Of a stretch of 64,000 bases of DNA, positions 36,888-56,770 are shown in pieces (the first letter of the stretch is position 1; each line of letters starts with the position of its first letter). Source of the DNA: Bacillota bacterium (lineage in GTDB: Bacteria > Bacillota > Negativicutes > CTSoil-072). Under the pieces are notes generated by a model. That model was given only the letters and a program-made list of their open reading frames with translations, ran no database searches and was not told the origin of the DNA. The stretch is from positions 12,086 through 76,085 of the forward strand of contig JAGFZV010000014.1 of assembly GCA_017889545.1 (NCBI GenBank), given 5' to 3'. A program made the position numbers and the translations under genes.

Positions 36888-36931
36888 TTAACATCTACTC
36901 CCATTACTTATTGCCGATTTTTCTCGTGCGG

Positions 36932-38340: not shown

Positions 38341-38349
38341 TCCCTCCTT

Positions 38350-39243
38350 CTACGCCACTTCGGTGTTGTTCTTCGAACCCAAGGTCAATGCGTGGCTGCA
38401 GGCTCCCGCAACATCGCAATATCTCTGGCATTTCCGATCCTGCCAACGCTCTTTCGCAGAACAGATGGGCGGCAGTTTCTGCTCTGACAGTGCATCTCTT
38501 AATCGCTGGGCCTTCGTATTGAAGTATCTCTTTACCCACTGATCACTGATCCGGTTGATCGGCAACAGATAGACCGATTGGTCCACATTTCGGCGTGCAG
38601 CCACTTCCAATCCCGCGTCGCGGATCATCATCTGAATGATCATCCGTTCAACCGGATAACCTGCTTGTTCCAGCAATACGCGATAGCCGTTTAACTGCAG
38701 ACGCCAATCCTGAATGCCTTTGCGCACGCCGTCTTCTTGCCATTCTTTGCGGGTTTTAGGCTGTCCCTTACGTATACCACTTTTAAAGATTTCTTTCGTT
38801 TCGACCTCGACAGCATATTTCCCCAAGGCCAGCATGCCTTTATAAGATGACGTAACTTTGTAATCACCCAATGTAAGCATGCCATCGCCCAGAACATCGC
38901 CATACAAATCAAACATACCGGAAATATCTTCTTCCCGCAGGCGAACTTCGGACAGCAGATCCTCCGCATTTTGTTCGAATTTCGCGTGAACTTCTGAACC
39001 GTTCAGAGCCAGCATTCGATCCTGCGGAGCAGCGGCATATTCCACAGTCTTCTTCAAATAGGTTTCTCTGGTTCCGGCAATCAGTTCAGTAATCGTAAAT
39101 CCCTCTATTTGACGGTTTTCTGAATTTGCGATTGCTCGGAGAGTCGGCAGAAACAAGCACCGCGATCCCATACGGCAGTTCTCGATGCAAGCAGAGATTT
39201 CATGGATGCTACCATCCGGGCAAATAAACCACCTTGCTGGCAT
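38350..39243 (-). CDS. PD-(D/E)XK (Cas4/AddB-like) exonuclease
   Basis: GSEVH, EVRL, SGMFDLY, GDYK, QLNGY, C-terminal CQRYCDVAGAC. Confidence 0.8.
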   Translation of the reverse strand: MPARWFICPDGSIHEISACIENCRMGSRCLFLPTLRAIANSENRQIEGFTITELIAGTRETYLKKTVEYAAAPQDRMLALNGSEVHAKFEQNAEDLLSEVRLREEDISGMFDLYGDVLGDGMLTLGDYKVTSSYKGMLALGKYAVEVETKEIFKSGIRKGQPKTRKEWQEDGVRKGIQDWRLQLNGYRVLLEQAGYPVERMIIQMMIRDAGLEVAARRNVDQSVYLLPINRISDQWVKRYFNTKAQRLRDALSEQKLPPICSAKERWQDRKCQRYCDVAGACSHALTLGSKNNTEVA

Positions 39244-39245
39244 GG

Positions 39246-39515
39246 TTACGCCGCCTCCTTCGATTGCTGCGCTGGCTTCGGCTGTGATACGGTAATTGAA
39301 ACTTCCGCATCTTTTTGCATATCGTCCTGCGGTTCACCAAGAATTTTCAACAGATCGAGCAAGCCGACCGTCAGCCTCGCTGCCTGTTTTACGCTGAGCG
39401 TACAATTGATGCACGTTCCATTTTGTTTGTTATTTAAGGAAATATTCACCGTATCTTGCAAATTAGACAGTCTAATTTCCAGTGGTTGATACGCCATGCA
39501 ATCAGTTACAAGCAC
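39246..39515 (-). CDS. Hypothetical protein
   Basis: Tightly packed in the operon, with an RBS. Confidence 0.55.
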   Translation of the reverse strand: MLVTDCMAYQPLEIRLSNLQDTVNISLNNKQNGTCINCTLSVKQAARLTVGLLDLLKILGEPQDDMQKDAEVSITVSQPKPAQQSKEAA

Positions 39516-39527
39516 ATTGATCCCTCC

Positions 39528-40589
39528 TTATGCTGCTGTGGCAATTTCCTGCCATTCTTTCTTCGGCAATGCCAATATTTGACCGCCGAACCGTTCAAAA
39601 TCCGTAGCCCGATTATAATCCAAGATTTCTTGGCTGGTATGGGTTACAGCATTCAAAAGCCCGTAGGCTGACAGATCGCCACCTTGGATTAAATGTTTAA
39701 TAACGCTGTCCCTTTCCAATTGATTGAACTGAAGCCGCTGACCAAGGACTTCCACTGCTCTTACCGGACTCCCTTGGATCATCTGCCCGGTTGCTTGTTT
39801 CATGCGATCGACAATTAAAGCAAATTTCGCCTGATCAACCGCTGCACGCACAATGTCCTGCACCTTTAGGAAGAAGGCTTTATCGTCCGCTTCCAAAGTT
39901 TCATCGCGGTATAGTTCATAAACAGGGTTTTCGTTTTCAACGGTTCGCCCCACATGATATTTGCGCTGGCCGAAATCTTGCGCAATCATGCCGTTCAAAC
40001 ACGCCAATCGGTAAATCAATGGTTCAACTTTTACGGAACCCAAGCCGACTTCACTGTTGCTGATGACAATGCCCGCCTGCACAATATCGCCCTTTTGCAC
40101 TTCCAACTGCAACGTTTTGTTGATCACTTTGATGAACATATTGGTTTCTGTTAACTCACAGCTGATGACTTCCGCACCTTTCATTTTGGCCAAAACGGGA
40201 AAAACGGCTTCTGCTAAATCATAATTGTCCAATCTCCGGTACCGATCTGAAAGGAACGCTCTTGCCTTCCCGTCTAACGTTCGGATCAAACGACGTTCCG
40301 GTTTGGCCTGCAGCCAGGAATTCACGTTTTCATCTAATAATGCCGGATTCTCCGCTTTCATTTTGTCATAGTAGCGAAATGGAATTCCCAACCGGTCTGA
40401 AATTTGTCGATGCGTCAACTCGTTGACCACAAACCCGTTGTTCCCGTTTTCGATTGGCAAGGCCAGCCTGCTTAATCCGTCTGCAGTTTGAAAGCCAAGA
40501 GAGCGGGTATCCACCAGATAATCCCGTTTTGTCAAAGCCTGCACATTCAATTCTCTGGCTAATTCGCCTAATGTCCTACCTTGTTTCAT
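39528..40589 (-). CDS. DUF932-family protein
   Basis: ARAFLSDRYRRLDN, ISNSEVGLGS, YRLACLNGMI. Confidence 0.8.
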   Translation of the reverse strand: MKQGRTLGELARELNVQALTKRDYLVDTRSLGFQTADGLSRLALPIENGNNGFVVNELTHRQISDRLGIPFRYYDKMKAENPALLDENVNSWLQAKPERRLIRTLDGKARAFLSDRYRRLDNYDLAEAVFPVLAKMKGAEVISCELTETNMFIKVINKTLQLEVQKGDIVQAGIVISNSEVGLGSVKVEPLIYRLACLNGMIAQDFGQRKYHVGRTVENENPVYELYRDETLEADDKAFFLKVQDIVRAAVDQAKFALIVDRMKQATGQMIQGSPVRAVEVLGQRLQFNQLERDSVIKHLIQGGDLSAYGLLNAVTHTSQEILDYNRATDFERFGGQILALPKKEWQEIATAA

Positions 40590-40836
40590 CTGTTTTATTC
40601 CTCCTTTTATTTTTTGGATAACAAGAAATTGATGAATTCACTGAGCAGTCGCAATAACGATGCTGTCATGCATGCCGCCTCCTTTTTTTGTATGAAAGAA
40701 ATGAAAAAGACACGCCATTGCTGACGTGCCCATATTGCTTATATCAATATTTTTGTGTATTTTGTGCATAAATTTGATCGGTCCAATATCTCACTTTATA
40801 TTATGATTTTGTCCCTTTTTATTATGCACTAAACAC

Positions 40837-40988
40837 GTCAAATAGAACCGTTGTAACCTGCGCTTCACCGTCTGCCTGCCGTTGGGTATCAAGAAAAGCA
40901 TTGTATCCGCCTATCGTGTCTTTTCCCAACCCACCCATCAATCCGCTTCGATCCAGGATAAAGATGATTTCTGTTAGTTTTTTTTCAT
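40837..40988 (-). pseudogene. 5' fragment of a vWA gene (frameshift in an A8 run, ends at ...TTVLFD)
   Basis: MKK-LTEIIFILDRSGLMGGLGKDTIGGYNAFLDTQRQADGEAQVTTVLFD aligns with the N-terminus of 51503-52156; GGAGG RBS retained. Confidence 0.85.
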
Positions 40989-41111
40989 GCCTATTCCTCC
41001 CGCAAAAATGAAATCAAGCCCTCCTCGTTGATGTAGGGGGCTCGTTTTGCTTATACCAATGATATTGTTTTTTGACGCTTATCATTGTCTAAAGGATCGT
41101 TATCGATGCAT

Positions 41112-43628
41112 TTACCATTTTTGTATATTAAATTTCCCAAACAAAGATTTTAAAAAGCCGCTCTCGCGTTTATGCACAAAAGTTTCTTCATAATTATTAC
41201 CTGAAAATATTTTTAGGTGGCTACAAAAAACCGGATTAATAACAAACGCCATATTATTAGTTAACGCTTGGTCACGAACTCTTGCCGTAATCAAGAGTGA
41301 TTTCTGAATTGAAACAGCATATTCGACATATTGGTCAGGAAATTTCACACCAAAAAAACCAACCGAAACCATATCTGCTATCATATTTCGAATATCTTTT
41401 TCATCTGTTTTGTTAGTATTTTCACCTATATGTTTTATAAGCTCCTGCAATGTCCAGTGATCCGCTTTGCCCGCAAAAGAATTAATAACGTTTTCCAACC
41501 ATGGTTGTTCCGCCTTATATTCAGCTATTATTTGCTTCAATGCAAAACCTGAATAATATTCATGTGCTATTAGCATATCTGCCTCTTCAATTTCCGAGTG
41601 CCCACGATTTATAGCCCATTCGATAGCCTTTTGAACAAAATGAATTAAATCTCTTGGACGAGGAAGTACGTTATTATAAAGCCATTCTCGTGTCTGCACT
41701 CCTTTTACCTTATGGGCAAAAAATTCAGTCCAGATATCTTCTGGTGGAGTTGTCCCATTTTTAATAGTCACTTTGCGAAACCGTTCTTCAATCACCCGCA
41801 TTAACATTTCTTGATCATTCCAAATAAGTTCAATTTGATCTGTTATTATTTTATCAGGCTCTCGCACAATCTCAAGATTAAGAATATATTCCAATATATT
41901 TCGTCGCAGAAAAATTATCACACTAATATCTAAATCCTCTCCAAAGTCGGTTCTTAAACGCCGGTGGATACCTAATAACGAAAATACTAATTGAGCCTGT
42001 AAAGTTAAATCACTTTCTGCATGCCATGATTTATCCAAATTATCAATGAGAATGACTATTTTATTAGTAGTTTGTATGATAGGGGTTATGTATTTTTTCC
42101 CATCTTTTAACATTTTGTCATGGATTTTTTTTGAAAAACTATCCGGATTCAAGGCCACGTCTTCTAACCAATTAGAAACAATTTCAAGTTTTTGCTCAAA
42201 GGGAGCTTCAACTAAGACTGCATGTAATGTAAAAAAGCTTAAAAAATCTTCTTCCGCTCTTGTTCTTCCCGTTTCAACTGGTCTTTTTTCTATATATTTT
42301 TTTAATACTACCATTATTTCACAATAAAGTATGAATTTCCATACATTTTCTAATACATGTTCTACAAAGCCTTCACGTTCAGCCAGTTTACTTAGCGACG
42401 TCAAAAAACGAGCCATCTTATAGTCTGCAGGCTTAATTTCACAGACTATATTCTTTACGTGCTTGCACGTGAAGGCATCTCGCAATTGATAAAATGTTGC
42501 CGTCTTTCCTGTCCCTTTGCACCCAATTATTAAAGCCTGTCTACATTTTAACGCTTGGTTAAACTGACCGGTTTTAATAAAATAATTTGAAAGCTCCTTT
42601 TCTTCATTTTCAGCAATAGAGTCACCTAGATTTACTTCTAGTAATATATATTCTTTCTCTTGAGATAAAAGTTTTCTTTTATCAGCATTACCTCCGAATA
42701 TTGCAGGCCTCAATGTTTGTTCAGTTGTAATAGAACTTTCACTTAATTCAAAGGCTTCTCTGAGCATACATCCAATTTGATCCTCATTATTTGGTAATAA
42801 AATAATTTCCTTATAATCAAAAGGAATTTCATACTCAGGCAACCCAATAATCTTTACTTTTTTCCCCAATCCAATTGCCATTCCACAAATAAAAGAATAG
42901 CGTGCGTTCATTGCCCGACTATTATCCCAACTCGTAGGCAAAAAGAATGCAACTATTCCTGAGGCCTGATTAATTTCCCGGACATACCAAAGCAACGTTT
43001 GTGCACTATTTTCATTCCAATCATCAATATGAACTTCAGAATAAGTTTCCTTGAAGATTTTAAGCGAAATCAATGCAATATTATGAAGACATACACCTTG
43101 CAGAAAAAGTCCACGGTTTGGTATGAAATTTACATCCATTAATGAATATTTATCATATTCTGGAGATGCTTTATGGATAAAAGGATTTTTAGTTTCTATC
43201 AAAGTAGAAAGTTGTTTTGAGTTTTTATAACTCCCAATATCCCATCCTGCGATTATCTCAAAATTTTTCAGATCGTCGTTTCGATCTGTCGTTGAAAACC
43301 CCTGAGTAAATAATAACGAATGTTTTCGTTTGCCAAAAGCAATTCCTGCCTCAAATAGAACATTAGGATTTAACCCGGAAATATCAGCAATAAATAAGTC
43401 ATTTCGCTCAATTGACTCCAAGATATTAGAAATTATTCTAGAACTTTTCCGTTGCATCCATTCCCAACTAGTAATCTCTAGATCATGCGATTGCAAATTT
43501 AATTCTTTAATTGCATTTACAATTATTTCTGCCAAATGACATGGGTTACTAGGATAGGCAAAAAAGCCTTGTTTCTTTGTAACCAGTTGCTTTTTTTTGT
43601 TCTTTTGATTAGTCTTTTTCTTTGGCAT
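41112..43628 (-). CDS. P-loop ATPase (Sll1717-like) with N-terminal TIR/nucleoside-deoxyribosyltransferase-like domain(s)
   Basis: FFAYPS..DLFIADISGLNPNVLFEAGIAFG; Walker A GCKGTGKT; Walker B ILIDNLD; RPRDLI. Confidence 0.75.
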   Translation of the reverse strand: MPKKKTNQKNKKKQLVTKKQGFFAYPSNPCHLAEIIVNAIKELNLQSHDLEITSWEWMQRKSSRIISNILESIERNDLFIADISGLNPNVLFEAGIAFGKRKHSLLFTQGFSTTDRNDDLKNFEIIAGWDIGSYKNSKQLSTLIETKNPFIHKASPEYDKYSLMDVNFIPNRGLFLQGVCLHNIALISLKIFKETYSEVHIDDWNENSAQTLLWYVREINQASGIVAFFLPTSWDNSRAMNARYSFICGMAIGLGKKVKIIGLPEYEIPFDYKEIILLPNNEDQIGCMLREAFELSESSITTEQTLRPAIFGGNADKRKLLSQEKEYILLEVNLGDSIAENEEKELSNYFIKTGQFNQALKCRQALIIGCKGTGKTATFYQLRDAFTCKHVKNIVCEIKPADYKMARFLTSLSKLAEREGFVEHVLENVWKFILYCEIMVVLKKYIEKRPVETGRTRAEEDFLSFFTLHAVLVEAPFEQKLEIVSNWLEDVALNPDSFSKKIHDKMLKDGKKYITPIIQTTNKIVILIDNLDKSWHAESDLTLQAQLVFSLLGIHRRLRTDFGEDLDISVIIFLRRNILEYILNLEIVREPDKIITDQIELIWNDQEMLMRVIEERFRKVTIKNGTTPPEDIWTEFFAHKVKGVQTREWLYNNVLPRPRDLIHFVQKAIEWAINRGHSEIEEADMLIAHEYYSGFALKQIIAEYKAEQPWLENVINSFAGKADHWTLQELIKHIGENTNKTDEKDIRNMIADMVSVGFFGVKFPDQYVEYAVSIQKSLLITARVRDQALTNNMAFVINPVFCSHLKIFSGNNYEETFVHKRESGFLKSLFGKFNIQKW

Positions 43629-43761
43629 AATTGCTCCTCCAGTATCTATGCACATAAATCTGACTTGTGTCCGTATTGTACGATGAAACATTGGACAATA
43701 CCAATTGATCAAGTTTTTATATCAACTATTTCACTGCCATTACAATAATTAACGTTTGGAT

Positions 43762-44151
43762 TTATCTTGCCCCATTTATGAGCTTTTTTAAATTATCCCA
43801 TGTCCACTTATACACCTTATCTTTTGCCAAAGCGGCTTTTGGTTTAGCGCATGTTTTCCCGGGCCGTCCATGCAATAAAAAATAAGAGACTTCTTCCTCT
43901 TGTGCAATTTTCAATTCGGCTGAGACCCCTGAAGCAGCATCAGTTTTTTCTCCGCACATAACAATCACAACGTCACAACTCTTAATTCTTGTGCGCGCTT
44001 TCGCTTTCCAGTTTGAATCAATTGTTTCTTTTATTGACATATCTGTTATCGCAAAAGGAGAATCCGGATTTTTTGCCTGCCCAACTAATAATATCTTAAG
44101 GTCAGAATCATTATCATAATCAAAGCTAATAAAAGTTCTTTTTTTAACCAT
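43762..44151 (-). CDS. TIR domain protein (ThsB / DUF1863-like)
   Basis: RTFISFDYDND, WK..ARTRIKSCDVVIVMCG, GVSAEL (catalytic Glu position), WTWDNL. Confidence 0.85.
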   Translation of the reverse strand: MVKKRTFISFDYDNDSDLKILLVGQAKNPDSPFAITDMSIKETIDSNWKAKARTRIKSCDVVIVMCGEKTDAASGVSAELKIAQEEEVSYFLLHGRPGKTCAKPKAALAKDKVYKWTWDNLKKLINGAR

Positions 44152-44182
44152 AATTTTGTACCCTCCATTCATGTAATATTTT

Positions 44183-44659
44183 TCAACACAAAATAAACAA
44201 TACAATACCCCCTGTTATGTAAAACAAACCGAATATAACTGGTATTAATTTTTCCACATGCGATATCGGCCAATAATTATTCCTATCTGTTCCATTTTCT
44301 AATAAACTCCACTCATATGCGTACAGAGAAGCTGGCAAAGATTTTTCCAACTCATGAATTACCGCAAATTTTCCTGAATTTAATTGCCTATAGCTATTTA
44401 AAATGTAAAACCATGCTAGCGAAGTTATTAAACCCACAGCAGCAATCAAAATAAACCATTTATTAATATTATTCTTAAATAAACCCAATATTGTTAATAT
44501 TATTGAATTTAGAGTTATAAAAAACGTATTTACAGTCATTCTTCGTTGACTAATTCTATCAGCCATTTCAACATAAATTTTATATTGTTCTAAGAGATGT
44601 TGCTGATAAGAATCCCCGTATTCGATTTTTGACCCGCTAAGTAAGCTAATGTCGCTCAT
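44183..44659 (-). CDS. Small multi-TM protein (RipA/8xMP-like oligomeric membrane protein)
   Basis: LLEQYKIYVEMADRISQRR..NTFFITLN, SYRQLNSGKFAVIHELEK.LP, three hydrophobic segments. Confidence 0.7.
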   Translation of the reverse strand: MSDISLLSGSKIEYGDSYQQHLLEQYKIYVEMADRISQRRMTVNTFFITLNSIILTILGLFKNNINKWFILIAAVGLITSLAWFYILNSYRQLNSGKFAVIHELEKSLPASLYAYEWSLLENGTDRNNYWPISHVEKLIPVIFGLFYITGGIVLFILC

Positions 44660-44903
44660 ATTATCCTAACCACCTCTTATTTGATTAATATAACAACTTC
44701 TATGCGCGCTTATTCTGGCACATCAATCAGCCTGTGCTATGACAACTGTTACCGTATAATGATTATTTTTATTGTTAGTCGTGTTCTTGATCGCTACGGA
44801 TCAAATCACGAGCAATCTTTTATTATTTGTCCTTCCTAATGAGATGTTTATCTGTGTAAAAAAGCCAATTTAATTTTTTATTAATTATCTGTTAATATCA
44901 TTT

Positions 44904-45413
44904 TTAAATAATCTCCAAAAACAACATATGTTGCCACAGTAAATTTTGAAAATCTTCCTTTGCAGTTAATTCTTGAGCTAATATAGAACTTCCACGACCA
45001 TCATTAACGATATACTGTCGGAAATCATATGTAAACCGGTTAAAGCGATTGATATATCCCTGTTGCAATATATCAATGCATTTATCCTCTGAGATCTTAC
45101 TTTTTTCATTAATCAGATGAATTACTGTCGCTTTTCGCCGTTGATTATTACGGACCCATTCCAGAGCTTGTTGCAGATTGTCCATGGCCTGCGTTTGATG
45201 GCTCTTATGCTCAATTTCAATTGAAAGAATACGATCGTACTTATTTAATCTATTCTTCCGTCCAATCCAAATATCAGGGCGTCCACGCCATTCACTACCG
45301 GGATTTATATCAACATTAACGGTCAAATCATTTGCTTTAGGCCATTTCTGGAATAACTTTTCAATTTCATTAGCCAAAGAATGTTGAAATCTGTTAGTAA
45401 ATTTTCCAGTCAT
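44904..45413 (-). CDS. Hypothetical protein, possible PD-(D/E)XK nuclease
   Basis: RPDIWIG...SIEIE motif spacing. Confidence 0.5.
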   Translation of the reverse strand: MTGKFTNRFQHSLANEIEKLFQKWPKANDLTVNVDINPGSEWRGRPDIWIGRKNRLNKYDRILSIEIEHKSHQTQAMDNLQQALEWVRNNQRRKATVIHLINEKSKISEDKCIDILQQGYINRFNRFTYDFRQYIVNDGRGSSILAQELTAKEDFQNLLWQHMLFLEII

Positions 45414-45750
45414 AGTTATCCCCCAAAATAATTGTCCTCTGCAAAAAAATAAAACCACTCCAACACAATTGTGACGTGGTTTTTGTTTACTGTATATAGT
45501 CTGCATTTGCAAAAGCCATAGATCGTTAGATAATTTCCACTTAGTTAAAAATATACATTCTCCTATTATTTTGAAAATCCTGCACAATATTTATTAGCAT
45601 ATATAAAAGAAATCAAATGGTATGTCTATTCGCTCTAAAGGCACAGAATAGCAAGTATAATTGTTTGATATTCTCAAATTTATATTGAGATTTGCTTGTG
45701 CCATGTTATACTTTTATTTATAGGGTCTCATTAGAATTGGAGGTCTGATT

Positions 45751-46026
45751 ATGGCGGTCAGTTACAATAGACTCTGGAAACTGTTGATTGACAGAGGCAT
45801 GAACAAAACACAGCTGCTAAAAGAAGCAAAAATCAGTACAAACGCCTTAGCAAAACTCGGCAGAAATGAAAATGTCCGTGTTGATGTGCTTGTTAAAATC
45901 TGCTGCGTATTGGGTTGCACGATGGATGATATTATGGACGTTATTCACGATGCGGAGAAAAAGCAAGGATTGGCTCGAAATCAAGGCGAAGGAAAGCCGC
46001 CTACGGGTTCGAATAAGAACCAATAA
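45751..46026 (+). CDS. Cro/C1-type HTH regulator upstream of the RM genes
   Basis: MAVSYNRLWKLLIDRGMNKTQL...LVKIC..LGCTMDDIM. Confidence 0.88.
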   Translation: MAVSYNRLWKLLIDRGMNKTQLLKEAKISTNALAKLGRNENVRVDVLVKICCVLGCTMDDIMDVIHDAEKKQGLARNQGEGKPPTGSNKNQ

Positions 46027-46039
46027 AAGGGGGGAAATT

Positions 46040-48136
46040 ATGGCTGCAATACATGACCTGATCAATCAAATAGAAAATCCAGAGTTGCGTGCCCGCATTC
46101 AGCAGAAGATAGACCAGATGAATAAGCAGAAGAAATTCGGGCTTGTGTTTGAAGAGCATCTGCCAGAATGTACGCCGCTTTATGATATTCCTGTTCGGAA
46201 AGACAGCACGGTTGCTCTCAAAGCCGGCAAGGTGAACGAAACATATGTCGTATTGAAGTTGAAAGATGACACTGCGGTATGTCTGCCAAAAGGAGGCGGG
46301 GAACTATCGGAGATCCCGGTGGCGGACTTGGTGTCCGTTGCAGAGTTCGGCGAGACAATTTATCCTTATCTGAAACCCATTGACAGCGTGTGCAACGCGC
46401 CCGATAGCGATTTGTGGCATACGCTGATCGAAGCAGACAACTACCATGCTCTGCAGCTATTGGAATATCTCTATGCCGGCAAAGTAGACTGCATCTATAT
46501 TGATCCGCCCTATAACACCGGCGCACGGGACTGGAAGTATAATAATGATTATGTGGATGGTGCTGATACATATAGGCACAGCAAGTGGCTTTCCATGATA
46601 CAGAAGCGGTTGAAAATTGCCAAGAAGCTGCTAAATTCGAATGATTCAGTAATGATCGTCACCATTGATGAAAAGGAGTATCTACATCTTGGATGCTTGC
46701 TGGAGGAGATGTTTCCGGAAGCCCGCATTCAAATGGTAAGCGTGGCTATCCATTCCGCAGGCGTTTCACGATCAGAGTTTTCGAGAACAGACGAATATTA
46801 CTATTTTGTTTTTCTTGGCAAAGCGGCTCCAAAGGCAATTAGCCTTGACGAAGAGTGGAGTGCAGACGGAACTAAAAGGCAAAGTGATGTCCGCTGGGAA
46901 AGTATGCTTAGGTCAGGCAACAATGGAAGGCGCAAAGATAGACCAAACCTGTTTTTTCCGGTGCATTTTGATAAATATTCTGAGGATTTTGTTGGGTTTG
47001 GTACTCCAATTCCATTTGGTGTAGCCGGAAAAAACTATATCCCGCCTGAAGGATGCGTTGCTGTTTTGCCCTACGCTTCTGATGGTTCAGAAGCCTGCTG
47101 GAGGATTTCTGCGCAAAAAGCAATGGAACTTAAAGAACGAGGTGCATTTGACTGGGGTGCATATAAAGGTGATAAGACAACTCTCAAATATCTGAAACCT
47201 GGTGAACTCAACAAAATTGAGAATGGGGAGTACACAGTCACTGGATATAAAGAAAATGGTGCAATGATCATTTCCTCTAAAGACTATAAACCTAAATGGA
47301 TTCCCGGTACTCAATGGCATGTTTCTACTCATCAAGCAGGTGGCGTTGGTGGAAGTGTCTTAATTAAAACTATTTTAGGCGAAAAAAGATTTGACTTCCC
47401 CAAATCTGTTTATGCAGTAAGAGATTCATTGCGTTTTATTATGGCCGATACACCTAATGCCCTCATTGTCGACTTTTTCGCGGGCTCTGGTACCACGCTC
47501 CATGCTGTTAACCTACTTAATGCCGAGGATGGCGGACACCGTCGTTGCATCATGGTTACCAATAACGAGGTCTCCGTTGATGAAGCAAAATCTCTTTCAA
47601 AGCAAGGCTATCAGCCCGGTGATCAAGAATGGGAAAAGCTCGGTATTGCCCGCTATGTTACCTGGCCCCGCACAGTATGCAGTATTGAGGGGCACGATGT
47701 CAACGTTAATCCGCTGAAGGGCAATTATCTTGGTTCTGATATTCCAATGGCTGACGGATTCAAGGCAAACGCAGTCTATTTCAAGCTTAGTTTTCTCAAT
47801 AAGACCGATGTTGCTTTGGGCAGGCAGTTCAAAGAAATGCTGCCCACGCTGTGGATGAAAGCCGGAGCATACGGTCCTTGCCCCAAACTGGCAGGAGAAG
47901 AAACGCCCACCATGCTAGTGCTGCCGGAGAATCGGCTTGCCATACTAACAGAAGAAGCTACTTTCCCTGATTTTGAAGCAGCAGTAAATGCCCATCCGGA
48001 AATCGAAACGATATATATCGTCACCGACTACGAGGCTGGGTACTGTGCCATGGCAAAGAATCTGAGTGCACCCAATACATATCAGCTCTATCGAGATTAT
48101 CTCGATAACTTCAGAATCAATACCGGGAGGAACTGA
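46040..48136 (+). CDS. mod: Type III RM methyltransferase (Mod)
   Basis: KKFGLVFEEH, IYIDPPYNTG, FDFPKS, DFFAGSGTT. Confidence 0.92.
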   Translation: MAAIHDLINQIENPELRARIQQKIDQMNKQKKFGLVFEEHLPECTPLYDIPVRKDSTVALKAGKVNETYVVLKLKDDTAVCLPKGGGELSEIPVADLVSVAEFGETIYPYLKPIDSVCNAPDSDLWHTLIEADNYHALQLLEYLYAGKVDCIYIDPPYNTGARDWKYNNDYVDGADTYRHSKWLSMIQKRLKIAKKLLNSNDSVMIVTIDEKEYLHLGCLLEEMFPEARIQMVSVAIHSAGVSRSEFSRTDEYYYFVFLGKAAPKAISLDEEWSADGTKRQSDVRWESMLRSGNNGRRKDRPNLFFPVHFDKYSEDFVGFGTPIPFGVAGKNYIPPEGCVAVLPYASDGSEACWRISAQKAMELKERGAFDWGAYKGDKTTLKYLKPGELNKIENGEYTVTGYKENGAMIISSKDYKPKWIPGTQWHVSTHQAGGVGGSVLIKTILGEKRFDFPKSVYAVRDSLRFIMADTPNALIVDFFAGSGTTLHAVNLLNAEDGGHRRCIMVTNNEVSVDEAKSLSKQGYQPGDQEWEKLGIARYVTWPRTVCSIEGHDVNVNPLKGNYLGSDIPMADGFKANAVYFKLSFLNKTDVALGRQFKEMLPTLWMKAGAYGPCPKLAGEETPTMLVLPENRLAILTEEATFPDFEAAVNAHPEIETIYIVTDYEAGYCAMAKNLSAPNTYQLYRDYLDNFRINTGRN

Positions 48137-48138
48137 CC

Positions 48139-50943
48139 ATGAAAGTTGAATTATTCCCGTTTCAGAAAAAGGCAGTAACCAACCTGCGTATGAAGGCAGC
48201 TGAGGCACTGGGCAGTTACCGGCGCACCCATACCCCGCAGGTAGTTTCCCTGCAGGCGCCTACTGGTGCCGGAAAAACGCTCATCATGGCCGCCCTTGTT
48301 GAAGATATCTACTTTGGTACAGACCAATATGCCGAACAGCCGGAAGCTATCTTCATCTGGCTGTCAGACTCTCCTGCGCTCAACGAGCAATCCAAGCAAA
48401 AATTCGATTTGAAGGCGGACAAGATTCGCTTTGGTCAATGTGTCACCATTGATGATAAATCCTTTGATATGGAAATACTGGAGGACGGGTACATCTATTT
48501 CCTCAATACGCAAAAGTTAGGGAAAGCTGGTAACCTTGGCAGACGTTCTGATACCCGCCAGCACACCATATGGGAAACACTGGAGAACACAGCAAGGGAG
48601 AAAGCCGACCATCTGTACTTTATTATTGATGAAGCTCATCGCGGTATGCAAGGGAAAGAGGCCGGAAAAGCGACATCCATTATGCAGCGCTTTTTGAAAG
48701 GAAGTATGGAACATCATCTGTCCCCGATGCCGGTTGTCATCGGCATCAGCGCCACAGCTGCCCGGTTCCATAACTTGGTGGGCGATACTAATTCCACTCT
48801 GCAAAAGTGTATTGTAACAGCCAACGAAGTGCGTGCTTCCGGTCTGCTGAAAGATCGGATTGTCATCACCTATCCAGACGATCCGGAAAAGAACAACGAA
48901 ATGGCTGTTCTACAGGCCGCCACGGATGAATGGAAGTTAAAATGCGACCATTGGTATCAATACTCATACGAACAACATTATGCACAGGTTAACCCGGTCT
49001 TTGTGATTCAAGTTCTCGCCGGAAGCGGTAAAAACGTTTCCGATACCAATCTGGACGATGTGATCGCCAAAATCGAGGAACGGATCGGCACCCAATTTAA
49101 AGAGAATGAGGTAGTACATACCTTTGGCTCTACTTCCACACTGTCGATTAACGGTCTGAAGGTGCATCATGTGGGGCCGTCTGAGATTACGGATGACAAA
49201 CGCATCCGTGTGGTGCTGTTCAAAGAAAATCTCTCTACAGGCTGGGATTGTCCTCGCGCAGAAACCATGATGTCCTTCCGCCATGCAGAAGACGCCACAT
49301 ATATTGCACAGCTTCTTGGCAGAATGGTGCGCACACCGCTGCAGTGTCATATCCTCGTGGACGATTCCCTAAATGATGTGCGTTTGTTCCTTCCCCATTT
49401 CAACATGAACACTGTCAAGAATGTGATTGATGAGCTGCAAAACACCGAAGGCGGAGAGATTCCCACTGTGATCGACGGAGAATCCATGGATCAGCCGCTC
49501 TATGTTCCATGGACAGTTCATCCTTCTCGGCACAGAAACAACCAGCCGATAGAGGGACAGATAAATTTGTTTTCGCAATCGGGAAACGCTGCTACAGAAG
49601 CTCAGCCTTCTGATTCTCAGGAGCTTAATGCTGCAAATGGTTATGCCACAACTGAAACGACAGATATCCCCCACAAACAGATCCATCCGCAAAGTGATCC
49701 GACCCCTATGTTCCTGGTCAAAAATGACAAAGAGAAGACAGACGAGTTCGTTTCGGACACCGGCGTTCAGATGAAACTTCCGAACTGCTATCTTGATAGA
49801 GAAGAAATTACGAAATTTATCAATGATCAAGGATTGCTGACTTATTTGGTTCGTTCGGTGAGGATCAACAGCTATCTGAAGTCCCTTCTGAATCTTGCCA
49901 GCCTGCTTACACAGACTAATATTTATCGGGACGCAACCGATGAAGTTAAAGATGATGTTACAAGCATGATTCGGTCCTATATCGATGCACTGCACACCAC
50001 AGGAAAATATGATGAGCTTGCTTCGCGTGTGCTTTCCTTCAAGCTGTCTGTCCGCATCTTTGATGTGTTCGGAGAGCCCCTTGACCGCGGCATTATTCAC
50101 GATTTCTTTACTGCTTCCGAAAGCGACCTCGACCGGCAGTTGCGTGCGGCCGATGCAAAGATTGGCGGTTACGGATTCCCAAATGTATACGGAAATAGGT
50201 ACTGCGACAACGATGACCCCAGCGTTTTCAAGGTCGATTGTATCTTGTTCGCGGCTGATGATGACTGTATAGCGAAGCTAAACAGGTACGCGAAAAAGAA
50301 ATTCCATGGTTTGAACGACCAATATCGGAAATATGTTGTCAATAAATCCGAAAAGTACAAAAAACAGTATAGCGATATCATTGCGGACAGCGATGTCGTC
50401 AGTAAACATAATTTCACCCTGCCGGAAACGATCAATGTCCGAATTGAGAAAGTTGGCAAGGAGTATGATAACCACTTGTTTGCTGACGAAAAAGGCATTG
50501 CCGTCATCAAGCTCAACGGTTGGGAAGAAGGTGTTTTGGAAGAAGAAGCAAAACGACCGGATTTTGTTTGCTGGCTTCGAAACCCGCCGCGTGAGAAATG
50601 GTCTTTGTGCATTCCATATGAAATCAACGGAGAAATCAAATCGACCTATCCTGATTTTCTGATTGTAAGAAGCGACCCGATTCTTACCTATGTCATTGAC
50701 ATTCTGGAACCGCACAATCCGGATTTCAAAGACAATCTTGGCAAGGCTAAAGGCTTTGCAAAATATGCGGAATCAGAGCCTAAGATCGGGAGGATTCAAC
50801 TGATTCGTACAGGTAAAGACCCGGCAGGAAAAATACGTTTCAAACGTCTTGACCTGTCACAGGGAGCAGTGCGTGACAAAGTGCTGAAGGCACAGAATAC
50901 CGACGAGCTCGACCATATTTTCGAAACGGATGGTATTTTTTAA
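48139..50943 (+). CDS. res: Type III RM restriction subunit (Res)
   Basis: APTGAGKT, IDEAH, SAT, GWDCPRA, QLLGRMVR, C-terminal YPDF..ILEPH. Confidence 0.9.
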   Translation: MKVELFPFQKKAVTNLRMKAAEALGSYRRTHTPQVVSLQAPTGAGKTLIMAALVEDIYFGTDQYAEQPEAIFIWLSDSPALNEQSKQKFDLKADKIRFGQCVTIDDKSFDMEILEDGYIYFLNTQKLGKAGNLGRRSDTRQHTIWETLENTAREKADHLYFIIDEAHRGMQGKEAGKATSIMQRFLKGSMEHHLSPMPVVIGISATAARFHNLVGDTNSTLQKCIVTANEVRASGLLKDRIVITYPDDPEKNNEMAVLQAATDEWKLKCDHWYQYSYEQHYAQVNPVFVIQVLAGSGKNVSDTNLDDVIAKIEERIGTQFKENEVVHTFGSTSTLSINGLKVHHVGPSEITDDKRIRVVLFKENLSTGWDCPRAETMMSFRHAEDATYIAQLLGRMVRTPLQCHILVDDSLNDVRLFLPHFNMNTVKNVIDELQNTEGGEIPTVIDGESMDQPLYVPWTVHPSRHRNNQPIEGQINLFSQSGNAATEAQPSDSQELNAANGYATTETTDIPHKQIHPQSDPTPMFLVKNDKEKTDEFVSDTGVQMKLPNCYLDREEITKFINDQGLLTYLVRSVRINSYLKSLLNLASLLTQTNIYRDATDEVKDDVTSMIRSYIDALHTTGKYDELASRVLSFKLSVRIFDVFGEPLDRGIIHDFFTASESDLDRQLRAADAKIGGYGFPNVYGNRYCDNDDPSVFKVDCILFAADDDCIAKLNRYAKKKFHGLNDQYRKYVVNKSEKYKKQYSDIIADSDVVSKHNFTLPETINVRIEKVGKEYDNHLFADEKGIAVIKLNGWEEGVLEEEAKRPDFVCWLRNPPREKWSLCIPYEINGEIKSTYPDFLIVRSDPILTYVIDILEPHNPDFKDNLGKAKGFAKYAESEPKIGRIQLIRTGKDPAGKIRFKRLDLSQGAVRDKVLKAQNTDELDHIFETDGIF

Positions 50944-51082
50944 TATCGCTATCATTTCTGTCGATAATTTGTCATAACAGCGTTCGTGCAGCATTGTGTG
51001 GCATCGTGAGAAATTGTTGCCTCATATTATCGGGCATTCTGCTGTATCGAAGTCTTTTTTCGAAGAAGACATTGACACTCAG

Positions 51083-51469
51083 TCAAACTTTTTTACTCAT
51101 CTGAAAATCATACACAAAATACACAAAATGCCAACGAAGCAATCTTCCTAATGTTGCGTTGGCATTCTGTTTGTCCACAGGGATGACCGCAATGCATTTC
51201 CGATACATGGATTGTTTTCGTCCCATTTTTTTTGCAATCACATTGCATCCTTTAGAAATAAACTTCCAAATCCCCGTTGGTGGATCACAGAGTTGCGTGT
51301 AAGAATGAGCGCAATACCTGCATTGCCACACATATTCCACAGAATTTTCATCTACTTTATTAATTACTCGGTATGCGTCCCTTCGCTTGCAACATTTGCA
51401 CTTCAACGAATCATTGAAATAATAGAGCACGAACAGGAAGGGAATCACACAGAACAGATAAAACAGCAT
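51083..51469 (-). CDS. Hypothetical protein with an N-terminal TM and CxxC pairs; 3' end uncertain
   Basis: CKCC...CRYC; the 3' end overlaps a copy of the island motif. Confidence 0.4.
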   Translation of the reverse strand: MLFYLFCVIPFLFVLYYFNDSLKCKCCKRRDAYRVINKVDENSVEYVWQCRYCAHSYTQLCDPPTGIWKFISKGCNVIAKKMGRKQSMYRKCIAVIPVDKQNANATLGRLLRWHFVYFVYDFQMSKKV

Positions 51470-51502
51470 ATCATTACCACCCGCTTTTGATATCCCCCCC
51501 TG

Positions 51503-52156
51503 CTAATTAATTAATTTGTTCTTGCTTCCTGATTTGTCAATCTCCGATTGCAAATTATCCGTAATTTTACCACAATCACGGAACTGAACTATGCTTTGCG
51601 CCACGGTATTGTACAAGTCCTGTGTTCCCATTCCCGTCGCCGCATAATTTGCTGCTCGATTTGCATTGATCCCAAGGTTTTGCGCTTCCCTCACTGCATC
51701 AATATTGGCACCAAGAAATAGAAACTCCCAGCTATATTTCTCCTGCTGATGGGTAATCATCCGCTGAATCTTTTTGTAGGAAAACTCCTTGCTCGCGTTC
51801 TCCTTACCGTCGGTGATAATAACAACGATGACTTTTTCCGGTCTTTCGCTCTCGTCTAATCGGTTCAATCTCGCACCAACATCATTAATCGTCATTCCCA
51901 CTGCATCTAATAATGCGGTTGAGCCACGGGCAAAATATTCCTTGCTGGTAATAGGCAATATTTGTTTGATATTCAGACCATCATGCAGAATCTCGTATCT
52001 GTCATCAAACAAAATGGTCGTCACCTTCGCTTCACCCGATGTCTTCTTCTGTGTTTCCAAAAATTCATTATACCCGCCAATGGTATCTGCTGTTAAGGCA
52101 TCCATGGAACCGCTTCGATCCAAAATAAATACGATTTCCGTTAAATCTTTTTTCAT
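51503..52156 (-). CDS. vWA domain protein
   Basis: MIDAS DRSGS, GSTALLDA, ITDGKEN. Confidence 0.9.
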   Translation of the reverse strand: MKKDLTEIVFILDRSGSMDALTADTIGGYNEFLETQKKTSGEAKVTTILFDDRYEILHDGLNIKQILPITSKEYFARGSTALLDAVGMTINDVGARLNRLDESERPEKVIVVIITDGKENASKEFSYKKIQRMITHQQEKYSWEFLFLGANIDAVREAQNLGINANRAANYAATGMGTQDLYNTVAQSIVQFRDCGKITDNLQSEIDKSGSKNKLIN

Positions 52157-52380
52157 GCTTTTCTCCTCCTAAATACTACCTCAAAATACGTACTAGCTGG
52201 CAACTTCTTCCCGTAACGATCGCATCGGTTCGGCTTTTTCGCCTTTTTTTAATCTGTATGACGAAACTATTAACAACAATATACGACATAGCTAAACCCT
52301 CCTCACTTTTGGTATTCAAGTTACTGTTACCAAAAATAAGAAGGGTTTTGTGCGTTTCCAATTAAACGGTATGATGCTGT

Positions 52381-52824
52381 TTAATTATTCTTCGTTACAA
52401 CACACCCTATTAAGTCAACATAATTAGCGTCCACACGCGTAACCAAACCCTTTATTTCTACTGATTTTCCTGCATTTAGTTTAGTAATAGAATCTTTTTG
52501 TTTATCAGTAAAGAAAAACCGAACATATACATTAGATTTTATTCCCTTTAATTCCCATACCTCATAAGGAAATTCATCGTTAAGTGATTTTCCAATATAT
52601 TCTGGTTTGGTTATTACTGTAATTACTTTATTATTATATTTCTCTTTTGCCATCAACGGATTTTTTTCCACCTCAGAGCTAACTACATAAGAAGTATGAG
52701 TTGCAACACTGGGTGTACTTTCAATTTTCGCATTATTCGCGGAATTTCCGCATCCGGTTAATAGAAAAACAAACATGAATACAAACAACAATTTTATGGC
52801 ACGCAAACAAAACACCTCTCTCAA
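52381..52824 (-). CDS. Lipoprotein with an OB-fold (tRNA_anti-like) domain
   Basis: Lipobox LLTGC, N..AKEKYNNKVITV, GKSVEIKG. Confidence 0.65.
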   Translation of the reverse strand: MREVFCLRAIKLLFVFMFVFLLTGCGNSANNAKIESTPSVATHTSYVVSSEVEKNPLMAKEKYNNKVITVITKPEYIGKSLNDEFPYEVWELKGIKSNVYVRFFFTDKQKDSITKLNAGKSVEIKGLVTRVDANYVDLIGCVVTKNN

Positions 52825-53138
52825 TTTATTGAATATCTGACTTTTGCCCGATAAATTAATGATAAAACATTCTATATTTTTATTTTCTCTGATACCCCAT
52901 TATTTAATAGGTACTCTCTCGGAAACCCGATAAATTATGATAAAGGCTATTTCCCTTGTTCTTTTTGAGTTTCTCGCAAACAATAGGAAGCAAATGATCC
53001 TAAATATGAAACTTTAAGAAAACACTGGACAAATTCATATTGTTTCAATAGTTCCGATAAATGCTCTTTTTAGCCAATCCTTCGCAAAAGTGGTGATTTT
53101 TCATCCGTTGCTCCCCATTTTATGTATCACAATGAAGT

Positions 53139-53861
53139 CTATGCCATGGACGCTTCAAAGTCACCTTCATCGCTTTCCGTTACAATATCATTTTCATAAC
53201 ACGATCCGATCGGATTATAAAAAGCTATCGCTTTTGAACCTACATATTTAGTTAGCAACTTATTTGCACCGGATGAAATAATCACACTAATCCCAAAGGG
53301 TGCGGCTTTCAGTGCTGCTTTTTGAGTAAATGTTATACCAACTTGTTTGAATATTTGTTTAACTCCTTGTAAGGTAGTACCCGATAAGTACTGCTTGATC
53401 ATGTTACAAAATGCTTTATTTCCAATGTTTTTAAATCCGTTTTTCCCAAATTCATTAATAGCTCCCAATCCGGCAACCATGAAACATATCATTTTCTCTT
53501 CTTCATTTGTAATATCACGACCATAAATACTGGCAATTGCCATCACCATTTCAATTTGCCATTTCATACATAATGCTGCATCTGCAGTACCTCCACCCAA
53601 AGTAGAGACAAGAGTTCCTAATCCGGGAACAATTCCAGCTAAAGCCGTAACTCCGCCTGAAAACGCAGTAAAATACGAGTAATTTTTTATAATATGTTCG
53701 CACATTAATGCTTGGATTTGATCTTTACTTTTTTTCCCTCCATATTTTTCATAATACTGATTTTCCATTGCTATAACTTGTTTCTTGATATCGGCAGGAT
53801 TTGATACAATCATTTCAACTGCCTTAAGTAATAAAGGCTTATCCTGAATAACCTCTTCCAC
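53139..53861 (-). CDS. EcsC-family protein
   Basis: GGVTALAGIVPGLG, QIEMVMAIASIYG, PFG. Confidence 0.75.
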   Translation of the reverse strand: MEEVIQDKPLLLKAVEMIVSNPADIKKQVIAMENQYYEKYGGKKSKDQIQALMCEHIIKNYSYFTAFSGGVTALAGIVPGLGTLVSTLGGGTADAALCMKWQIEMVMAIASIYGRDITNEEEKMICFMVAGLGAINEFGKNGFKNIGNKAFCNMIKQYLSGTTLQGVKQIFKQVGITFTQKAALKAAPFGISVIISSGANKLLTKYVGSKAIAFYNPIGSCYENDIVTESDEGDFEASMA

Positions 53862-54021
53862 TTTTACACCCCCCTTGATATTTTCAGTGTCAATATGACA
53901 CTTTTAACTTTAATTTTCTATACATTAATCCACTTTCCTGCAAAAAAATGTCTAATCGCCACATATATTGAAGTTTTCTTTTCACGTATGTATCGTTACA
54001 GTCAGGGGAGTGTGGCGAAAT

Positions 54022-54345
54022 ATGAATGGCTTGGGCAGTCGAATTAAGCAGGCTAGAGGATGTCGTAGCCAAGAAGAATTGGCATCAATGGTCAATGTGG
54101 ATCGGACAACTTTGGGGTCTTGGGAAATAGGGCGCAGAGAGCCTGACCTTGATCACTTAGTTCAAATTGCTGATATTACTGAGGTTAGCTTGGATTGGCT
54201 TGCAGGCCGCGACAAGACTTCACCGGCGCAAACAAAAATATATAACAGCCCCGAATGGCGATCTATCATAGATTATTCTATTGTTAATCAAGTTGCACCA
54301 GAAAAACTAATGACATTATTAAAAGCCGCTCTTTCCTTGAAATAA
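54022..54345 (+). CDS. XRE-family HTH regulator
   Basis: SQEELA..VDRTTLGSWEIGRREPD..VSLDWLAG. Confidence 0.88.
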   Translation: MNGLGSRIKQARGCRSQEELASMVNVDRTTLGSWEIGRREPDLDHLVQIADITEVSLDWLAGRDKTSPAQTKIYNSPEWRSIIDYSIVNQVAPEKLMTLLKAALSLK

Positions 54346-54375
54346 AAACTTGGAAAGAAAGCGGCTTTTTATTAT

Positions 54376-54569
54376 TCAAATAACAACGATGACTTTTTCC
54401 GGCCTTTCACTCTCGTCTAATCGGTTCAATCTCACACCAACATCATTAATCCTTATTCCCACTGCATCCAATAACGCTGTTGATCCATGAGCAAAATATT
54501 CCTTTTTGGTAATTGGCCGTACCTGTCTGATATCCAGACCATTATGCAAAATCTCGTATTTGTCATCAA
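54376..54569 (-). pseudogene. Internal fragment of a vWA gene (DDKYEILH...PEKVIVVI)
   Basis: Clear nucleotide and protein similarity to the middle of 51503-52156. Confidence 0.88.
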
Positions 54570-55123
54570 GGGTGAAATAGGTAAAAAGAAAGCAGATCAT
54601 GGTTGACGCCATGTCTGCTACAAATGATTTTTTGTTTATAAAAACATGCACAAAATACACAATATTAATTACTCACCATGGGCTAAAATAAAAAGGCGCA
54701 TCAGATGTTTCCTGTAACACAGATTCACCAGTATGAAATATTTTTGTGTATTTTGTGTATGGATTAGTCCATTAAAAATTTTCAATATGTGCTTTTACGA
54801 AAAGATCGTCGAATCGCCCATCCAAACAGAGAGCCTGCATCTTTATCACCCTTCCTTTGTTATGAATTCTAGCTTGAACACCCTGAATTATAACGGAAAG
54901 GTGATTTTTTTGTATAACTTTCGTTTCCGCACCCGCATAGCGGGCGGTTTATTGCGGAGCGCAAAGCAACACGCTCCACGGGCTAAAGCCAATAATGAAA
55001 AGAGTCGCCATTGCTAACGTATCAGTATTTACATAATGCTGACACGTCATTTTTTTGTATTTTGTGTTTCTTTTTATGGACGAATAACCAAAACTAAGCA
55101 GGGAAATGACATGATGGTAAGAA

Positions 55124-55852
55124 TTGTATAAGGAAAGTTGCAATATTCTACTAATGTTAGGAAGTGATGCCAACGTGACAACAGCAATTGCCAACCAAAA
55201 TGATCTTGTCAATAATTGCGATAAATTGATGAACGATATATCATTTCGGCTCGAAGTGGTTCGATCTTATCAGAAGTCAATTAACATGAAATTGGCCGGA
55301 GAATTTAACGTATTTAAACTGATGAACCCAAATGAAAATACATTATCGGATGTCCTTGCTGATATGCTGAGGCCCGATGGTACACATGGACAAGGCGATG
55401 TTTTCCTAAAGCTTTTCTTATCCCGCTTGGGCTTTGCAAACCATCCCTCTACAGTTAAAATTAATGTTCGGCGAGAAGTGCCAACTAATAATATACTTAA
55501 CTCAGAAAGACGGATTGATATACTAACTGATTTCGGCGGCCAATACGGGATCGGCATAGAAAATAAACCATGGGCAGCCGACTTGTCCAATCAGGTTGGC
55601 GATTACTGTTCCCACCTGGACAAGCTTTATGGCGATAAGTACATGTTCGTATATTTGCCACCGTATGATCGCGATCCAGACAATGGGTCACTCCATAAAC
55701 TAGACTTGCTGAAGCAACGTAATGGGTATTGTTGTTTATCATATAATTCTGGATTAAAAAATTGGATGGAAGACTGCCTGAAAGAATGTAAGGCAGATAA
55801 ATACCGTTGGTTCTTGCAGAACTTTATCGAATATGTGGAAAATGAATTTTGA
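55124..55852 (+). CDS. PD-(D/E)XK nuclease (PDDEXK_4-like); start uncertain
   Basis: ENTLSDVLA..P.GTHGQGDVFL, RRE, RIDIL, IENK, QVGDY. Confidence 0.85.
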   Translation: MYKESCNILLMLGSDANVTTAIANQNDLVNNCDKLMNDISFRLEVVRSYQKSINMKLAGEFNVFKLMNPNENTLSDVLADMLRPDGTHGQGDVFLKLFLSRLGFANHPSTVKINVRREVPTNNILNSERRIDILTDFGGQYGIGIENKPWAADLSNQVGDYCSHLDKLYGDKYMFVYLPPYDRDPDNGSLHKLDLLKQRNGYCCLSYNSGLKNWMEDCLKECKADKYRWFLQNFIEYVENEF

Positions 55853-55866
55853 AGGAGTGACCTAAG

Positions 55867-56463
55867 ATGAATTCAGATAAAGACGTGATCATAAATTATT
55901 TTTTTGAAAAAAATTCAGATGACAACATGTACATTGCATTGACGCTCGGCTATAACATTACAGACTTAAAGATTAAAATTATTAAGGATTTTTGGAATTC
56001 ATTAGAACAACATCTACGTTTATCTCCAATGCTTAAAAATATTAGTGATTGGCAAATACAAAATGATTTTCAGTCAGATTTTTGGGGCAAACGCTACAAT
56101 GGGTTTCGCATTTTAAAAACCGGTTGGGCTGATGGTTATGCAATCGAAATAAATGCAGATTTAGGTAATGTCAACGACCTTTGCGTCGGTGTAAAGAAAC
56201 CAACAACTGCCCACCCGCTTGATAATCAAGTCCTTAGAAACAAATTAGACGAAAAAATGGGAATTGGCGGCCCTATTGCAGAAGACGGAGTATGGGAATG
56301 GTGGAAGGCACTCGATAATAAATGGCGCTACTGTGATAATGCGGATACCATGATGAGGTTATATCAAAAAATAGAAGGCGTTGAGTATATGGCAGAAAAA
56401 ATGCTAGCCATTCTGAACGTCTCTGAAGACTATCTTGATAAAACCGGTATAACAAAACCATGA
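55867..56463 (+). CDS. Hypothetical partner of the nuclease
   Basis: RBS AAGGAG, starts 14 bp after the nuclease stop. Confidence 0.6.
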   Translation: MNSDKDVIINYFFEKNSDDNMYIALTLGYNITDLKIKIIKDFWNSLEQHLRLSPMLKNISDWQIQNDFQSDFWGKRYNGFRILKTGWADGYAIEINADLGNVNDLCVGVKKPTTAHPLDNQVLRNKLDEKMGIGGPIAEDGVWEWWKALDNKWRYCDNADTMMRLYQKIEGVEYMAEKMLAILNVSEDYLDKTGITKP

Positions 56464-56516
56464 TTGGCTGTCTATAATATCGTCATCTTGCTCAAAAATG
56501 ACTTGTCATCAAACGA

Positions 56517-56737
56517 TACTCCCCGGACTGGGCAATTTCGTTTAAGAAAGGCGCAGTGAAGCATATCTTCTTCATCGCCGAAACTAAAGGGACGATGGGC
56601 AGTCTTGAACTCCACCCGATTGAACAGGCGAAGATCTCCTGTGCCAAGAAGCTGTTCAACGAGATTTCCACCACCGAGTGAAGTACCACGACGTGGACAG
56701 CTACCAGAGCCTGCTCGCGGTGATAGAAATGCTGTAA
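56517..56737 (+). pseudogene. 3' remnant of a second type III Res gene
   Basis: YSPDWAISFKKGAVKHIFFIAETKGTMGSLELHPIEQAKISCAKKLF, then a frameshift, then KYHDVDSYQSLL. Confidence 0.8.
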
Positions 56738-56770
56738 GTAAAGTGATTCTGCTCTCAGGAGGGCCGAAAA

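Follow-up and report, generated by a model that had tools for sequence, protein, structure and literature searches.

In the passages of two reports that deal with them, the defence hotspots of P4-like and P2-like satellites and prophages are places where systems are exchanged module by module, leaving small remnants behind (PMC9122126, PMC13586616). Here we describe a locus in a 64,000-nucleotide (nt) stretch of a Bacillota draft genome (contig JAGFZV010000014.1, positions 12,086 to 76,085; hereafter the window), in which a 13,733-bp block of defence-type genes within an integrative island is bracketed by two complementary pieces of a vWA gene, fragments A and B, that break at the same codon and stand in permuted order. 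The hotspot passages of these two reports (PMC9122126, PMC13586616) contain no account of complementary halves that sit in permuted order at the two ends of a slot; no dedicated literature search was made for such a pattern. As far as those passages describe the hotspots, the likeness lies in a conserved mobile backbone beside a slot in which close relatives have different defence content, and the difference in the backbone itself, which here consists of NrS-1-type primase-polymerase, DUF3987, ERF and DUF932 proteins in a Negativicutes host.

Campbell-type insertion of a circle splits a sequence into two same-orientation parts at the ends of the insert, with a short common core at both joints. 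The block likewise has same-orientation halves at its ends and a shared short core, but the crossover has no homology or known attachment (att) site, its partner site bears no relation to vWA, and a circle was not seen. Integron gene cassettes are circular, promoter-poor units captured at one platform site, and secondary-site insertions occur. In contrast, no IntI-type integrase lies beside the site described here, no attC-like element is common to the ends of the modules, and the modules carry their own terminators and face both ways. Islands are also known to accrete in tandem at one tRNA gene and then to undergo deletion. The locus resembles such a history in a third, decayed island end to the left of attL, the left att copy of the island, and in copies of the island's short repeat (c4 to c8 below), among which a relic pair c6/c7 and the c4-like c8 lie inside the island; accretion accounts for the repeat copies around the block, but not for the complementary breaks.

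Two complementary vWA fragments break at the same codon

The two pieces of vWA gene are as follows.

40837-40988, minus strand: vWA fragment A, codons 1-51, with a frameshift at an A8 run and the motif DRSGLM; nearest to the P0004/P0005 clade
54376-54569, minus strand: vWA fragment B, codons 51-113 plus stop; mosaic, with codons 62-71 divergent and the rest close to the resident intact vWA

As reference for both alignments we used the intact paralogue that resides in the block (51503-52156; protein P0001). It is a YegL/TerY-type vWA with weak VWA_2/VWA matches, the DxSxS metal site DRSGSM and thousands of YegL-named relatives. Fragment A runs from an ATG at 40988 to ACG GTT CTA TTT GAC G at 40837, followed by an unrelated VFSA and a stop; its alignment to the intact gene begins in the ribosome-binding region and ends in TTTGACG (codon 51). 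Fragment B starts after the letters caccc with TTGATGACAAATAC (54569), encoding DDKYEILH, and ends in GTT GTT ATT TGA at 54376-54379, with a hairpin terminator next to it. Homology thus stops in A and starts in B within the same 6 nt, TTGA(C/T)G (alignment columns 203-209), and a six-frame search of the genome recovered the two pieces separately (query residues 2-51 and 46-115).

Both fragments are encoded by the minus strand and B has the higher coordinates, which places it upstream of A on the coding strand and turns both breaks outward. They stand in permuted order around the 13,733 bp, and a single reading frame is regained only by joining 54569 to 40837. The sequence-only reading of this DNA had proposed the common break codon with its TTGA(C/T)G overlap and the permuted order with a frame-restoring joint; reading of the minus strand and alignment to 51503-52156 confirmed both. 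Complementary parts in the same orientation, in permuted order and with a short common core have the form that a single-crossover insertion of a circle leaves. By a rough estimate, two independent cuts in a 650-nt gene would agree within ~6 nt in roughly 2% of cases, for a match that was spotted post hoc.

Each fragment carries further damage. In A, a frameshift arises in the run of eight A residues that follows the ATG, and DRSGLM replaces DRSGSM at the metal site, which by its residues is broken; B is also truncated at its 3' end, at codon 113.

The 14 nt immediately beyond the break of A (TGCATAATAAAAAG, minus strand; window 40815-40835) match the right end of M1, one of the modules of the block (TGAATAATAAAAAG; 54365-54385, adjoining the 3' end of B), at 13 of 14 positions, a likeness equalled by only 2 of 2000 shuffles. 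Both vWA pieces may adjoin the same kind of module end.

A possible single crossover of circular cargo

Our preferred reading, held tentatively and with somewhat less than even confidence, is that one non-homologous crossover of circular or rotated cargo produced both joints, A and B. We observe the joints, the way they are oriented and the two edges of the slot; from these we infer a circle, an order of events and an exchange of sequence. The crossover would have occurred at the 6-nt microhomology TTGA(C/T)G and would have opened a circular copy of the cargo, or the island's own cargo excised (perhaps between modules M3 and M1) and re-inserted, inside a vWA pseudogene that was already truncated at its 3' end. 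The opened ends would have been joined to the two edges of the slot and, around or after the crossover, B would have become a mosaic through exchange with the vWA gene that lies 2.2 kb away, or with an allelic copy of it. We saw no evidence that either a dedicated recombinase or a specific vWA site took part.

How defence islands acquire and rearrange whole systems is for the most part inferred by comparing gene content, and joints that preserve a single event are seldom found. If A and B stem from one event, they would be a base-exact record of ~13.7 kb of cargo, four or five systems, entering or rotating as a circle. Entry would have been by non-homologous joining at the edge of a satellite-like island, and the record would name a slot that can be tested at the bench.

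The block as the variable slot of the island

The features of the slot and its edges are listed from left to right.

40708-40775, minus strand: end of the island backbone, with a terminator-like hairpin (40708-40731) and island repeat copy c4 (40746-40775)
40767-40836: left flank, a 70-nt stretch from c4 to the break of A that ends in the 14 nt with likeness to the right end of M1 described above
41112-45587, minus strand: module Y1, with an 866-amino-acid (aa) ATPase with a TIR-like N-terminus, a ThsB-like TIR protein (43762-44205), an 8xMP membrane protein (44183-44659) and a 227-aa open reading frame (ORF)
45618-50969, plus strand: type III restriction-modification module, with mod (45866-48136) and res (48139-50943)
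51057-52364, minus strand: module M3, with repeat copy c5 (51104-51129), a Cys-rich small protein (51083-51469), the intact YegL-type vWA (51503-52156) and an upstream terminator
52383-54381, both strands: module M1, with a lipoprotein (52381-52824, minus), an EcsC-like protein (53139-53861, minus), an XRE regulator (53968-54345, plus) and a bidirectional terminator
54570-55075: right flank, with repeat copies c6 (54640-54665) and c7 (54737-54766), a 160-nt stretch (54845-55004) and c8 (55050-55075)

Three public runs, all from one study and none of them of the source organism, matched the window (query share 0.06) through contigs of a relative; such contigs show presence, not absence. The soil island of this relative is ~89% identical to the window (295 differing letters and 13 gaps over 38000-40766). 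In window coordinates, its 31.9-kb contig consists of 38000-40766, 65 other letters, 52383-52938 (lipoprotein), 86 letters replacing EcsC, 53878-54381 (XRE and terminator), 9267 other letters and 51060-52051 (Cys-rich protein and vWA). The joint 40766/52383 was present in all three runs and the backward joint 54381/51060 in two of them. In the soil relative M1 therefore adjoins the backbone, and the order of M1 and M3 is opposite to that in the window. The relative's order (backbone, M1, 9267 nt, M3) equals that of the window if the ring is closed at A/B and opened between M3 and M1; because three items allow only two cyclic orders, this agreement lends weak support to a rotation.

A separate 6.06-kb contig of the relative covers 54583-56515, and its loose end finishes in GGGTGA, the letters of window 54570-54575. 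We therefore read the right flank as common from 54570, the base at which B breaks, with a 7-nt gap. In a genome of the same genus (G001), the backbone is kept to 40763 and is followed by quite different genes, including one for a trypsin-like protease. Homology of the backbone with both relatives stops at 40763-40766, and both carry other cargo between the edges of the slot. Judged from these edges, the block appears to be the whole variable cargo slot of the island.

Two 30-nt loose ends of the relative's contigs had no match in the window at up to 3 mismatches; one of them corresponds to window 52336 onward with small indels. When the DUF932 protein, the last of the backbone, was compared with metagenomes, genomes and viral contigs, one close relative was found (the G001 contig, 89% aa identity), the others being distant.

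One vWA gene or two

The protein of fragment A is nearest to P0004 (89%) and 70% identical to the resident paralogue P0001, and that of fragment B is nearest to P0001 (83%), with 78% to P0004. At sites where P0001 and P0004 differ, A sides with them 0:9 (P0001:P0004) and B 8:5 (Fisher p 0.0055); by halves, the counts for B are 3:5 in the first and 5:0 in the second. At the nt level, A differs from the resident gene at 44/141 positions and B at 23/189, with 10/30 in codons 62-71 and 13/159 elsewhere. For the divergent patch of B (codons 59-71), the best matches among 293 proteins were P0002 and P0006 (9/13), followed by P0004 and P0005 (8/13) and the resident P0001 (7/13). The patch thus leans weakly to the clade nearest to A, in a test that overall closeness confounds. 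Residues next to the break belong to this same clade on both sides, V48 in A and K53 and N59 in B. A common vWA lineage of A and B, on which the idea of a circle had been made to depend, met with a mixed outcome: the patch of B and the residues near the break lean to A's clade, but the nearest relatives differ and the silent sites split at the break.

Several observations weigh against a single crossover. The proportion of silent sites that differ from the resident vWA (pS) was 0.74 for A (24.2/32.8 sites), which amounts to saturation, and 0.25 for B (10.5/42.0), and it was still 0.27 in the first third of B; as a yardstick, the resident vWA and its G001 orthologue give 0.55-0.64. In A, each of codons 45-49 differs from the resident gene at silent positions; in B, codons 52-61 have the silent variants that are the resident's own; and the switch falls exactly at the break. 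If there was a single gene, it would therefore have to have been a hybrid of two parts that met at the break, unless B was overwritten all the way to its end. In addition, neither relative conserves the 70 nt between c4 and A, which leaves the slot without a defined left edge. The search of 401 phylum genomes found a single homologue of the 866-aa ATPase (42% identity), with no vWA gene beside it, and A is thus not tied to its present neighbours. The block contains no recombinase gene. In the three runs no contig joins 54569/40837 or 40836/54570, contigs being unable to show absence, and neither A nor B is listed as covered by the relative's contigs. Neither a circle joint nor an empty target was present among the matches listed from 401 class genomes (39 weaker matches lay outside those listed). 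Of the earlier claim that the block entered as a circle, the topology held and the block is a real unit of variation, while neither a circle joint nor an empty-slot joint came to light in the contigs of the three runs.

B is a mosaic, and the silent sites contradict a simple origin from a single gene. Two readings are left: two unrelated remnants, or a P0004-like pseudogene in which the neighbouring or an allelic vWA later overwrote the B part as far as homology reaches. The relative's vWA is ~92% identical to the window over 51060-52051 and less than 80% identical over its first ~35 codons and the upstream 117 nt (window 52051-52273), indicating that the intact vWA genes of these islands are mosaics too. 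Against plasmids and phages, the best identity of P0004 was below 60%.

The island and its repeat copies

The features of the island outside the slot are the following.

28985-29038: attL, a 54-nt copy of the 3' end of tRNA-Gly, exact direct repeat (100%) of 62679-62732
30100-31332, minus strand: tyrosine integrase of the island (Phage_integrase, 1.2e-28)
31721-40589, minus strand: backbone, with a DUF3987 helicase, an NrS-1-type primase-polymerase, ankyrin proteins, an HTH protein, an ERF recombinase and the DUF932 protein (39528-40589)
62679-62732, minus strand: attR repeat, within tRNA-Gly(CCC) (62688-62762)

The island spans 33.6 kb between the exact 54-nt direct repeats at tRNA-Gly, with ~21 kb of defence-type cargo beyond the backbone. 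Direct repeats of a tRNA end and an integrase adjoining one end, both of which are present, characterize an integrative island of the tyrosine-recombinase type. From its gene content the window would hold an integrative, self-replicating island with a defence cargo slot between repeat c4 and the relic arm c6/c7.

The sequence-only reading had placed copies of an island motif 70-80 bp outside the breaks. We found the repeat core TGTGTATTTTGTG at 40754-40766, 70 nt beyond the break of A, and its reverse complement at 54649-54661, 79 nt beyond that of B. Across the 3.27-Mb genome, 11 of 18 core matches with at most one mismatch, and all 5 exact ones, fall in this island. The island repeat is ~20 nt long and consists of two tandem units of 9-10 nt. 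Convergent pairs adjoin attL (29274, 29367) and attR (62462, 62523); a third one, c6/c7 (54649, 54745), resembles that at attR, and c8 (55054) resembles c4 (40754), including ~50 nt downstream. We read 54.6-55.07 kb as the probable relic of a junction between two fused islands, in which case the block would be the whole cargo of the first. Such a relic explains the repeat copies around the block without a capture site. The flanks between break and repeat are unrelated and do not form an inverted repeat (1056 of 2000 shuffles scored as high), and the 47 viral loci that matched the 19-nt repeat pattern are not related to the window.

Between c7 and c8, 110-160 nt of the stretch 54845-55004 match many class genomes at 81-96% identity, in one of them directly after 5S rRNA. 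This stretch often has two copies per genome, several of them at contig ends, and contains a terminator-like hairpin; no Rfam family matched it. The relative island has 163 extra nt at 54842.

Alternative explanations

One alternative is that A and B are independent scars of different vWA cassettes (A of a P0004-like one, B of an allele of the resident M3 vWA) left by separate replacements, the shared break being coincidence or local fragility. We regard this as possible, though on the doubtful side. It would account for the differing nearest relatives, the opposed informative residues and the silent-site switch at the break, and outside its patch B differs from the resident gene (13/159 nt) about as much as the relative's M3 differs from that of the window (76/992). 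Modules of vWA and Cys-rich protein move as units, and one report, in the part concerned with satellite hotspots, has small pseudogene remnants as common there (PMC13586616). Two scars would, however, have to agree within 6 nt, the ~2% event estimated above, with both cuts facing outward at the two ends of the slot, and the patch of B and its break-proximal residues lean to A's clade. A fragile spot finds no support either. vWA matches occur in 120 of 401 class genomes, and among the matches listed (150 of 180, these being near full length) no other break lies at codons 50-52; in the five genomes richest in matches, the breaks of all 22 lie near codons 30 and 120 and none at codons 50-52. The recurrent break at FD/D for which the sequence-only reading had suggested a search was not seen in the matches examined. 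If the scars are independent, the locus is an ordinary, fast-turning hotspot.

An active capture system would ask more of the island: its integrase, bound to the ~20-nt repeat on both sides, would recombine circular cargo into a fixed slot site in the manner of an integron, here at a secondary site in vWA. The repeat is indeed specific to the island and flanks both att sites and both breaks, the edges of the cargo are equal within a few bases in relatives with different cargo, and several modules have sharp, re-used ends. Yet the joints are unlike the att core (best 16-mer 9/16, reached by 199-200 of 200 shuffles), the break-to-repeat flanks are unrelated, c6/c7 and c8 are more simply relics of a second, fused island, and the modules face both ways and end at terminators with no common site. 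The integrase lies 9.5 kb from the slot, and breaks at codons 50-52 do not recur among the matches listed. We consider such a system unlikely. Its wider form, in which defence modules move as circles that the island integrase captures at a fixed slot, with the vWA halves as a secondary-site capture and the satellite-like element as an integron-like platform for whole defence operons, seems to us a shade less likely again. The nested cassette capture at a specific site put forward in the sequence-only reading fared no better; with no recurrent break among the matches listed, no circle joint in the contigs of the three runs, no recombinase in the block, no likeness to the att core, no inverted repeat in the flanks and a mixed lineage, it stays conjectural.

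An assembly artefact, with the contig misthreaded through repeated vWA or island sequences, is very unlikely. The source is a draft genome (3.27 Mb, 50 contigs, 96% complete, 1.8% contamination) and related island variants exist in nature, but the joints are unique sequence, not internal to a repeat, and their flanks are single-copy in the genome; A and B differ from the resident gene (at the 44/141 and 23/189 nt given above), so they would not collapse in assembly. What probability remains falls to other explanations.

As regards an integron-like platform, no recombinase lies beside the site, only M3 contains a repeat copy, and the module ends are terminators without a common sequence. Other candidates were rejected. 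For insertion of a transposon, the joints have no terminal inverted repeat and the Pfam scans found no transposase. A secondary site of the integrase was set aside on the lack of likeness between the joints and the tRNA att core, and inversions between repeat copies cannot restore the vWA gene, as reasoned from the orientations of the copies.

Cargo modules and their ends

Beyond the right flank lies a second cargo.

55124-62239, plus strand: second cargo Z, with a PDC-S26-like PD-(D/E)XK protein in two ORFs, a 998-aa helicase and an ABC-type ATPase

Sharp ends recur in other contexts, those of M3 at 51057/51060 and 52363/52364 (three contexts) and that of M1 at 54378/54381. Both G001 and the soil-contig relative have M3 as a unit, flanked in G001 by a type I restriction system and a large helicase, and the upstream piece of M3 also occurs alone, ending at 52363. 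The cargo is thus a mosaic, made up of modules whose ends are sharp and re-used and mostly lie at terminators. The type III module is 90-92% identical, with other flanks, in a genome of another family (L047, G209:C215). An exception is 46739-47382 inside mod, which differs from that copy and is probably the target-recognition part.

In the second cargo, the PDC-S26-like protein (55124-56463) is divided between ORFs of 242 and 198 aa that match profile positions 16-192 and 222-404 of a model of ~413 positions, and it may be a split gene or a broken one. The PD-(D/E)XK protein had no match in viral contigs.

Surroundings of the island

To the left of attL lies an older, decayed island end (27997-28984), in which the terminator downstream of tRNA-Gly has a copy at 27997-28038 (86% to 62643-62684) and a small ORF contains a stretch like 62385-62426. 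This relic end indicates repeated insertion at the tRNA-Gly gene. Just outside the island, a c-di-GMP-I riboswitch (27792-27884, minus strand; 59.6 bits) lies upstream of acetyltransferase/MFS genes.

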